A DNA stretch of 64,000 nt, taken from positions 3,283 to 67,282 of the forward strand of contig CACHAK010000005.1 of assembly GCA_902577765.1 (NCBI GenBank), written 5' to 3'. The notes under the pieces were generated by a model. The model was given only the letters and a program-made list of their open reading frames with translations, did not search any database and was not told where the DNA came from. The position numbers and the translations under genes are program-made. Positions 14,154-15,721 of the stretch are shown piece after piece (position 1 is the first letter of the stretch; every line of letters starts with the position of its first letter). The stretch is from an uncultured Pelagibacteraceae bacterium (lineage in GTDB: Bacteria; Pseudomonadota; Alphaproteobacteria; Pelagibacterales; AG-422-B15).

Positions 14154-15149
14154 TCAAATTTTTTCAATAATCCGAATGAATGGATCAAGGTTGTCTTGTA
14201 AAGGGTCTAAACATGGCAAGTTATATTCTTTAGATAATCTGTCCTTATGATCACTTGCCTCAGATTGACAATTTGATGTATTAAGTGCAATGCCAATACA
14301 TTGTATTTGCTTATTAGTGAGCTTACCATTTTGAATTGTCTGATCGATAACCTCTCTGATGCTCGGTAAAGGTGTATCCACGCCCCTCATATTAGTTCGT
14401 GTTGGTTCATGACATACAACAAATGCATCTGGTTGGCTTCCATGAAGCAATCCAAGTGAAACTCCTGCGAATGAAGGATGAAATAGAGATCCCTGACCTT
14501 CAATAATATCCCAGTGATTATCATCATTGTCAGGCGATAACCATTCAACTGCTCCTGAGATAAAATCAGAAACAATAGCATCAATCGCAATGCCACTTTC
14601 TGCAATTAAGATTCCAGTTTGTCCAGTTGCCTTGAAAGATGCATCTATTTGATTGCTCTGCATCGCTTTTTCAATTGCGAGTGCTGTATATTTCTTTCCC
14701 ACAGAACAATCTGTTCCAACAGTAAGGAGTCTTTTGCCTGATCGTTTTCCTCCTTTTCCTGTCTGAAATTGTTTATCACTAAACCGTAAATCATGAAGTT
14801 GAACATTGTTTCTTTCAGCTGCCTCTGCAATTACACTAAACGAAGATAGTCTTGAATGCATTCCGCTGGCTACATTCATTCCAGATGATATTGCATTAAT
14901 TATAATGGATTTCCATTCTTCAGGCATAACACCTCCGGCATTCACCACGCCAATAACAAATGTCTTAGCGCCATTCTTAACAGCTTCCTCTATACTCATT
15001 TCTTGTAAACCTAAGCTTGATTTAGCATTTGGAAGTCTCATTTGGCCAATGCACCAATCTGGACGCCAGTAATTAACCCCTGCAGCAGTTTTTATTGCCA
15101 AATCATCTTGAGCATCACCAAGAAATAATAAATACGGTTTTGATATCAT
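14154..15149 (-). CDS. dgcN: D-glutamate N-acetyltransferase (DUF1611 family)
   Basis: GTDCSVGKKYT, ATGQTG, EGQGSLFHP, GLLHGSQPD. Confidence 0.9.
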   Translation of the reverse strand: MISKPYLLFLGDAQDDLAIKTAAGVNYWRPDWCIGQMRLPNAKSSLGLQEMSIEEAVKNGAKTFVIGVVNAGGVMPEEWKSIIINAISSGMNVASGMHSRLSSFSVIAEAAERNNVQLHDLRFSDKQFQTGKGGKRSGKRLLTVGTDCSVGKKYTALAIEKAMQSNQIDASFKATGQTGILIAESGIAIDAIVSDFISGAVEWLSPDNDDNHWDIIEGQGSLFHPSFAGVSLGLLHGSQPDAFVVCHEPTRTNMRGVDTPLPSIREVIDQTIQNGKLTNKQIQCIGIALNTSNCQSEASDHKDRLSKEYNLPCLDPLQDNLDPFIRIIEKI

Positions 15150-15170
15150 GTTAATAAGCTGTTGCTTGAG

Positions 15171-15215
15171 TGGGGATAAGTGAGCTTAATTCGTGTGGAT
15201 AACTTTTTTGCATAA
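15171..15215 (-). promoter_or_regulatory. Cluster of co-oriented DnaA boxes
   Basis: TGTGGATAA at 15194-15202 is a perfect TTATCCACA. TGGGGATAA (15171-15179) and TTTGCATAA (15207-15215) each have one mismatch to TTWTNCACA. Confidence 0.6.
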
Positions 15216-15223
15216 ATAACCCC

Positions 15224-15252
15224 TTGTTTCAAAAAAAATACCTTTCTAAGAT
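15224..15252 (+). promoter_or_regulatory. Sigma70-type promoter candidate
   Basis: TTGTTT (15224-15229), 17-nt spacer, TAAGAT (15247-15252). Confidence 0.5.
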
Positions 15253-15257
15253 GATCG

Positions 15258-15345
15258 TTCGCAATGAGACGTTCATGCGTTTCGGGGTTCGACCGGCCCC
15301 AGAAAAAGCGCTAAAGTGAGAAAATTCTTGCCTTGGCGCTTTTTT
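15258..15345 (+). ncRNA. Candidate structured sRNA or leader RNA (three hairpins, ending in a terminator)
   Basis: GC-rich island in an AT-rich intergenic region. Hairpins at 15260-15279, 15284-15300 and 15303-15344, then a U-tract. Confidence 0.55.
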
Positions 15346-15400
15346 GATGTATTTGATCCCCTTAAGCAATGCATTTTTAAATATTCTTAAAAAAATCTCA

Positions 15401-15721
15401 ATGGCAAAGATCAAATATATCGAATTTAGCGGCGCGGAGCACGAAATTAATGTCAGTAGTGGACTGACTGTCATGGAGGGTGCGATTAAGAATAAAATAC
15501 CTGGCATCGATGCAGATTGTGGCGGTGCATGCGCATGTGCAACTTGCCATGTATATGTAGCAAAAGAATGGATAGAAAAACTGCCTCCAAAAGAGGATTC
15601 TGAAGAAGATATGCTAGATTTTGCTTTCGACGTAAAAGATAATAGCAGATTAAGCTGTCAAATTACTGTTTCTGACGAGCTAGACGGTTTAGTTGTTAAT
15701 ATGCCTGAGAAGCAGTTTTAA
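15401..15721 (+). CDS. 2Fe-2S ferredoxin (adrenodoxin/FdVI type)
   Basis: [11 protein letters not shown] ... RLSCQI; likely start MAKIKYIE at 15401 (track 15344). Confidence 0.95.

Follow-up and report, generated by a model that had tools for sequence, protein, structure and literature searches.

The DNA analysed here, a window of 64 kb, comes from a member of the Pelagibacteraceae (SAR11), and its closest genome match is a single-cell genome with a 99% identical ferredoxin. Two divergent genes frame the region of interest: a DUF1611 gene on the minus strand (14154..15149; Pfam DUF1611 and DUF1611_N) and a 2Fe-2S ferredoxin gene of 106 amino acids on the plus strand (15401..15721; Pfam Fer2, E = 1.1e-10), separated by an intergenic space of about 250 nt (15150-15400). 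Within this space, on the plus strand, lies a structured RNA-like element of about 88 nt (15257-15345), composed of three hairpins in series, H1, H2 and H3, and followed by a spacer that leads to the ferredoxin start (15346..15400). The G+C content of the element is 49%, compared with 34% in the intergenic DNA upstream and 25% in the downstream spacer. The original prediction, made from the letters of the sequence alone, had proposed a candidate promoter followed by a G+C-rich stretch of about 88 nt that folds into stems, the last of them ending in U6, and each of these features was found where it had been placed.

The surroundings have features of their own. When G+C is followed along the window it ranges from 29 to 40%, mostly about 32-37%. 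The best-known surface SAR11 strains have about 30% G+C; since the window lies above that value, the carriers of the element may belong to another subclade. On the minus strand, the DUF1611 ORF overlaps the downstream enolase-superfamily (MR_MLE) ORF by 35 nt (14154-14188). The listed start of the MR_MLE ORF is TTG 14188, and the overlap fits either tight gene packing or a wrongly listed upstream start.

Distribution and conservation

About 40 loci from related genomes and metagenomes have the element in this position, and their copies represent four sequence types, namely A (with sub-types A2 and A3), B, C and D. Every carrier shows the arrangement DUF1611 (minus), element (plus) and 2Fe-2S ferredoxin (plus), with DUF1611 as the divergent upstream neighbour and the ferredoxin gene directly 3' of the element at every carrier locus. 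The fuller gene order reads phosphoribosyl-AMP cyclohydrolase, L32, enolase-superfamily (MR_MLE), DUF1611, element, ferredoxin, DUF1254, DUF1214 and a ferredoxin-NADP-reductase-like gene. Eight SAR11 species representatives (L001-L008) have the element upstream of ferredoxin, scanning metagenome contigs for the pattern gave 43 loci, of which about 32 are true copies and the remainder chance matches, and one more copy was located on a 368-kb contig. The geometry varies within narrow limits: the element measures 82-88 nt and lies 106-123 nt from the DUF1611 start, and the spacer from the terminator to the ferredoxin start is 52-57 nt long in types A-C, in type D 75-77 nt. The chance pattern matches (L081, L088-L090, L094, L095, L097, L098, L100, L104 and L122) lie in unrelated G+C-rich coding sequence, most of which translates, by eye, as ...WGLDRP....

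A covariance model built from 22 sequences matched the window once, with 103.9 bits at 15257-15347, and gave no match upstream of ferredoxin in 72 other alphaproteobacterial or other SAR11 loci. No copy of the element was found beside DUF1611 genes in other contexts, and the other Pelagibacteraceae ferredoxin loci that we recovered lack it (the reference strain HTCC1062 lies outside this comparison). Six of the loci in this family (L019, L035, L047, L056, L064 and L074, at about 1240-1500) have a ferredoxin orthologue or paralogue, 68-72% identical, which by eye sits right after a proteorhodopsin gene. The distance from the proteorhodopsin terminator to the ATG is about 20-30 nt in several of them and about 95 nt in L047 and L056. 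Since a terminator precedes the ATG there as it does in the carriers, ferredoxin lies just behind a strong terminator in both arrangements.

The constraint on the element was gauged by comparing the window with the other types. Identity is 73-95% across the element, compared with 45-58% at the third codon positions of ferredoxin, 51-80% in the upstream intergenic DNA and 48-86% in the spacer. In contigs from eight marine metatranscriptome runs the core of the element (15258-15331) shows zero differences, while the flanking genes vary at many sites. SAR11 bacteria are among the most abundant marine organisms, and their genomes are very compact: intergenic DNA is almost lacking, and protein regulators are few. 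Given this compactness, and because the constraint is far above that on synonymous sites, the unit of about 88 nt is very likely functional. Judged by these sequence comparisons, the element is real, specific to one lineage and strongly constrained.

Other signals share the intergenic space. The stretch from the DUF1611 start to the -35 box contains two sites resembling DnaA boxes (15171-15179 and 15194-15202), spaced by 23 nt and with the motif on the minus strand; one reads TTATCCCCA, and the other, TTATCCACA, is perfect. All types keep a site like TGTGGATAA(G) at about 25 nt from the start codon of DUF1611, and most loci of types A, A2 and A3 have a second one. A replication origin was considered and rejected, as the number of such boxes over the window equals that expected by chance (23 versus 22.7) and there is no GC skew switch at this position. 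The sites are probably a regulatory site for the divergent promoters.

Promoter-like boxes and predicted start

Upstream of H1, a -35-like hexamer TTGTTT (15224..15229) and a -10-like hexamer TAAGAT (15247..15252) can be read directly from the plus strand, separated by a 17-nt spacer and ending 5-8 nt before the first hairpin region. The pair had been proposed as a promoter in the original prediction. The boxes are present and their position is conserved, while their agreement with the consensus is weak (7/12), below the threshold of a consensus promoter scan, whose output therefore did not list them. The -10 box is the more constant of the two: in all sequence types, a TAnnAT-like hexamer (TAAAAT, TAATAT, TATCAT and similar) precedes the first base of H1 by 6-8 nt, whereas TTGTnn at a distance of 17 nt from it is found in types A, A2 and A3 and is weak or absent in B, C and D. 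The predicted transcription start falls at about 15257-15259, 5-7 nt past the -10 box and at the foot of H1; the covariance model match also begins at 15257.

The three hairpins

H1 (15260..15279) is a bulged hairpin, CGC-A-AUGA/UCAU-GCG, with the loop GACGU. In the 22 aligned sequences 91.6% of its cells are paired, with zero compensatory changes. A competing hairpin, GAGACGU/GCGUUUC (15266-15283), overlaps H1 and excludes it; this is the minimum free energy form of the window sequence taken alone, is 87.7% paired in types A-C, and is impossible in type D. In type D, the most divergent, H1 is shorter (CGCAU/AUGCG), its loop is U-rich and unlike that of the other types, and the linker to H2 is 1 nt long. 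Because type D thus keeps the pairing first proposed for H1 and not its competitor, the choice is settled in favour of the former, and the H1 core GCA-UG/CAUGC is also recovered in the RNAalifold consensus of the full leader. The competing hairpin could be either a coincidence or one state of a conformational switch.

H2 (15284..15300) is the near-invariant core, a 17-nt hairpin with the stem GGGGUU/GGCCCC and the loop CGACC (GGGGUUCGACCGGCCCC), and it matches the GGGGU/GCCCC stem of the original prediction. All of its cells (100%) are paired, and stem and loop are identical in the four types. Only three variants were seen, all one-sided and all keeping the pairing: U>C opposite G, G>A opposite U, and C>U opposite G. 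With no double change in H2, the data are compatible with RNA pairing and do not prove it. Within the 64-kb window there is no second copy or complement of H2 or of the other conserved segments, and a screen of 73 start regions by duplex folding, uninformative as a test, gave no signal for the neighbouring genes.

The GGUUCGA of H2 resembles a T-loop or the 5' segment of tmRNA, but its 3' strand fails to close a T-loop of 7 nt, and ARAGORN finds no tRNA or tmRNA gene in the window. A 16-mer of H2 has 11 matches in viral contigs, all in the coding sequence of G+C-rich phages and thus attributable to chance, and the full element pattern has 0 matches in viral contigs, which removes the reading as a phage attachment site or tRNA remnant.

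H3 (15302..15345) consists of an A-tract, an imperfect stem of 19-20 bp at 15302-39 with GCGC at its base, and six U residues (U6) at 15340-45, as in the long imperfect stem ending in U6 that had been predicted. Being a G+C-rich stem-loop with a U-tract directly after it, H3 qualifies as an intrinsic (Rho-independent) terminator, and folded alone it reaches -22.1 kcal/mol (z = -6.5). A simple scan for terminator-like sequences failed to list it. The homolog and covariation analysis found the terminator conserved with compensatory changes: 5 pairs have double changes across 31 sequences, and in the A-C alignment double changes affect 10 cells (2.3 in shuffles), while the share of paired cells is 94.5%, compared with 41-56% for slid registers. 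The apical part of H3 differs between types in both length and sequence. Because an A-tract precedes the stem and a U-tract follows it, H3 is also terminator-like on the minus strand.

The 94-nt stretch as a whole folds on the plus strand at -38.9 kcal/mol (z = -4.9, 0/200 shuffles as good) and far more poorly on the minus strand (-27.6 kcal/mol, z = -2.2). Most of this signal comes from the terminator: H1 and H2 folded without it are unexceptional (z = -1.5, with 12/200 shuffles equally good), so thermodynamics by itself proves only the terminator. The case for anything beyond it, and for an excess over chance, comes from the conservation seen among related sequences.

The spacer between terminator and ferredoxin contains an AT-rich block, TTTTTAAATATTCTT (15374-15388, plus strand), that can be aligned in all four types as TTTWAAWTRAWCTT and keeps a constant distance from the terminator, not from the ferredoxin ATG. 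It may represent the -10 region of a promoter for ferredoxin, although such a promoter is only weakly predictable in the spacer and promoter calls in A+T-rich DNA of this kind are unreliable.

Known RNA families and coding potential

Searches of the whole window with Rfam 15 at gathering thresholds gave 0 matches, and a permissive scan of 15100-15450 gave only chance-level ones (E >= 2.4, with scores at least 30 bits under threshold). Together with the ARAGORN result, this bears out the initial view that the element matches no tRNA, SRP RNA, 6S, tmRNA or riboswitch. The alignments of known SAR11 motifs also lack the element, and none of the 12 supplementary files of PMC2704228 contains its H2 core, whether written as RNA or as DNA and whichever strand is searched. 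The literature we consulted describes no small RNA beside the SAR11 ferredoxin gene. By these searches the element matches no described RNA family and is a candidate for a new one.

We also considered whether the region is translated, as the original prediction had offered attenuation through a 22-codon ORF as an alternative to a free small RNA. That ORF exists in the window, from ATG 15251 to TGA 15319. Its ATG overlaps the -10 box and would thus lie upstream of the predicted transcription start, and no type other than A has it. The ORFs that begin at internal AUGs use three frames, measure 1-35 codons and have no conserved stop position. In type C the first internal AUG (in CAAUG) runs directly into UAA, and type D lacks this AUG. 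The AUG within CAUGC occurs in every type, with products of 9 to 35 or more residues and stops that fall anywhere from 2 nt past H2 to beyond the terminator. Since the linker from this AUG to H2 measures 1, 4, 5 or 6 nt, H2 is read in three frames. The comparison therefore rejects a leader peptide or small protein: of what was put forward at the outset, the discrete, conserved and structured unit was upheld and attenuation through the ORF was not.

Coverage in marine RNA runs

Sequence words of the element are present in 14 marine runs listed as RNA, plus one library of uncertain type. Contigs from such runs cover the element in 8/8 runs examined, these being assembled contigs that carry no strand and may include DNA carry-over. 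Their depth over the element is 2.5-6, no higher than over the neighbouring genes. Some contigs begin upstream of the predicted start, at 15097-15208, and some run into ferredoxin, to 15387-15535 (X26, 15204-15535; X38, 15257-15407). Contig ends at 15257/15258 and 15349-55 were considered as transcript ends and rejected, because they coincide with strain-variant sites, where assembly graphs branch, and are thus artefacts. Two bubble contigs end at 15287, which equals 15257 + 30.

Discussion

Our preferred reading, to which we give a probability of about 0.45, is that the element encodes an independently transcribed and constitutively terminated small RNA that acts through H2. In this scheme, a weak sigma-70-type promoter with a conserved position would start transcription at the foot of H1. 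The transcript would pass through H1, the invariant H2 and an A-rich stretch, and the terminator formed by H3 and U6 would make its 3' end in most rounds of transcription. H2 would be the functional determinant, either as a protein-binding site or, once opened, as a pairing surface for a G+C-rich target, with H1 and H3 mainly shielding the ends of the RNA. The A-rich stretch and the U-tail would suit an Hfq-like chaperone. hfq was not found among the genes of the 64-kb window, a result that concerns the window alone and is uninformative for the genome. Most transcription of ferredoxin itself would begin at a promoter of its own within the spacer of 52-77 nt. Independent transcription, the start site, the role of H2 and action in trans are all steps that we infer. 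To our knowledge no trans-acting small RNA has been characterised in SAR11, and the literature on SAR11 small RNAs likewise gave none.

We searched for an antiterminator. In single sequences the A-rich 5' strand of the terminator has a possible partner in the 3' strand of H1 together with the U-rich linker, and in type D in the 5' strand of H1 together with its U-rich loop, in a register that differs between types. Across 15 representatives, pairing of H1 plus linker with the 5' strand of H3 was no better than in dinucleotide shuffles (z -2.0 to +1.4), and the antiterminators found by hand or in truncated folds were rejected on both grounds. A consensus fold that reaches from the predicted transcription start into ferredoxin, as far as codon 8, shows H1, H2 and H3 and no other helix, and nothing in it pairs with the translation start of ferredoxin. 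The lack of a conserved antiterminator leans towards a free small RNA, and, combined with the conserved AT-rich spacer block and the lack of pairing at the start codon, it favours an RNA that is independent and constitutively terminated.

The most serious rival, which we hold to be possible though on balance unlikely, is a cis-acting leader or attenuator, in which ferredoxin is transcribed from the promoter at 15224-52 and the RNA of about 88 nt is a by-product of termination. H1 and H2 would then form a sensor, bound by a protein or a small ligand, that decides between termination and read-through into ferredoxin. The position of the element is what such a leader would have: in about 40 loci and all four types it lies on the same strand as ferredoxin and immediately upstream of it, 52-77 nt from the start codon with the spacing fixed within types, and DUF1611 homologues in other contexts are without it. 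This strict adjacency and co-orientation keep a factor-dependent attenuator in contention, although the synteny as a whole is conserved, so that the fixed adjacency to ferredoxin does not discriminate between the readings. H2 is as invariant as a binding site would be, and, as the loop and length of H1 differ in type D, its 17 nt are the only universal candidate for the sensor. The two mutually exclusive folds of H1, both maintained at about 90% in types A-C, and the RNA-run contigs that cross the terminator into ferredoxin (X26 and X38) would also suit a switch. The known SAR11 regulatory RNAs are moreover cis-acting (PMC2704228), which counts in the same direction. Against this stand the varying register of the complementarity to the terminator, a terminator whose length and stability are unusual among switchable ones, an AT-rich spacer block that is possibly a separate promoter, and the absence of any match to a riboswitch family.

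A more specific and rather improbable version is that the element founds a new class of cis-regulatory RNA, in which H2 with H1 senses a signal relevant to the 2Fe-2S ferredoxin and the neighbouring ferredoxin-NADP reductase and tunes read-through of the terminator. That signal could be the iron or iron-sulfur status of the cell or its redox state, perceived directly or through an RNA-binding protein. SAR11 bacteria have very few transcription factors.

We find it improbable that the element has no dedicated RNA function and is a DNA-level protein-binding site or a plain terminator or insulator, for example a bidirectional terminator combined with a protein site that shields ferredoxin and DUF1611 transcription from each other. 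Since the terminator is flanked by an A-tract and a U-tract, it could act on both strands, and on the minus strand the covariance model scores 27 bits at 15300-15397. The lack of compensatory changes in H2, the unremarkable stability of H1 and H2, and the nearby DnaA-box-like sites, which indicate that this intergenic DNA holds DNA-level signals, are in keeping with such a role. H2, however, is no DNA palindrome beyond GGGG/CCCC, and its three variants keep the RNA pairing, G-U pairs included. The fold is much better on the plus strand than on the minus strand, promoter boxes stand at a fixed distance from H1, and the window has no plus-strand gene directly upstream of the element that would need a terminator there.

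A leader-peptide attenuator or small-protein gene, whether based on the 22-codon ORF or on an internal one, can be dismissed as highly improbable given the linker indels of 1, 4, 5 and 6 nt that shift the frame and the products of 1-35 residues that result.

If the element is a trans-acting small RNA, it would be among the first such regulators proposed for SAR11; if it is instead a switch for ferredoxin, it would suggest RNA-based control of the electron-carrier or iron-sulfur economy in the open ocean. In either case GGGGUUCGACCGGCCCC preceded by CAUGCRU provides a compact, conserved marker for one SAR11 sub-lineage in metagenomes and metatranscriptomes.

Comparison with known systems

Of the systems with which the element can be compared, the guanidine-II (mini-ykkC) riboswitch is alike in having two short serial hairpins with CG-containing loops (ACGU in H1, CGAC in H2). 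The loops of the element are not ACGR tetraloops, however, and the H1 loop of type D is U-rich; there is no Rfam match up to E 10, and the gene context is unrelated.

Terminating riboswitches and attenuators share with the element their co-orientation before a gene, a conserved 5' part, an intrinsic terminator and a short spacer. They differ in that the element has no conserved antiterminator and no junction or pseudoknot aptamer, and its candidate sensor is a pair of small hairpins belonging to no known class.

Small RNAs generally combine one or more 5' hairpins or a seed with an A/U-rich stretch and an intrinsic terminator with a U-tail. The trans-acting, chaperone-dependent members of this group (for example the alphaproteobacterial AbcR and alpha-r families) resemble the element in their length of about 90 nt, in having their own promoter-like boxes, serial hairpins and a short invariant segment, and in the A-rich stretch, here AGAAAAAG, that precedes a strong terminator with U6. 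Unlike an open seed, the invariant segment of the element is a closed, G+C-rich hairpin, and it matches no Rfam small RNA.

The motifs described in SAR11 by Meyer et al. 2009 (pntA, bablM, rhtB and SAR11_0636; PMC2704228) differ from the element in sequence, which is absent from their alignments, and in gene context; its carriers are SAR11 lineages in which ferredoxin is not beside proteorhodopsin. Like these motifs, the element is G+C-enriched and intergenic, is built of serial stems with one near-invariant stem and few covarying pairs, and stands about 60 nt from its gene, as does pntA.
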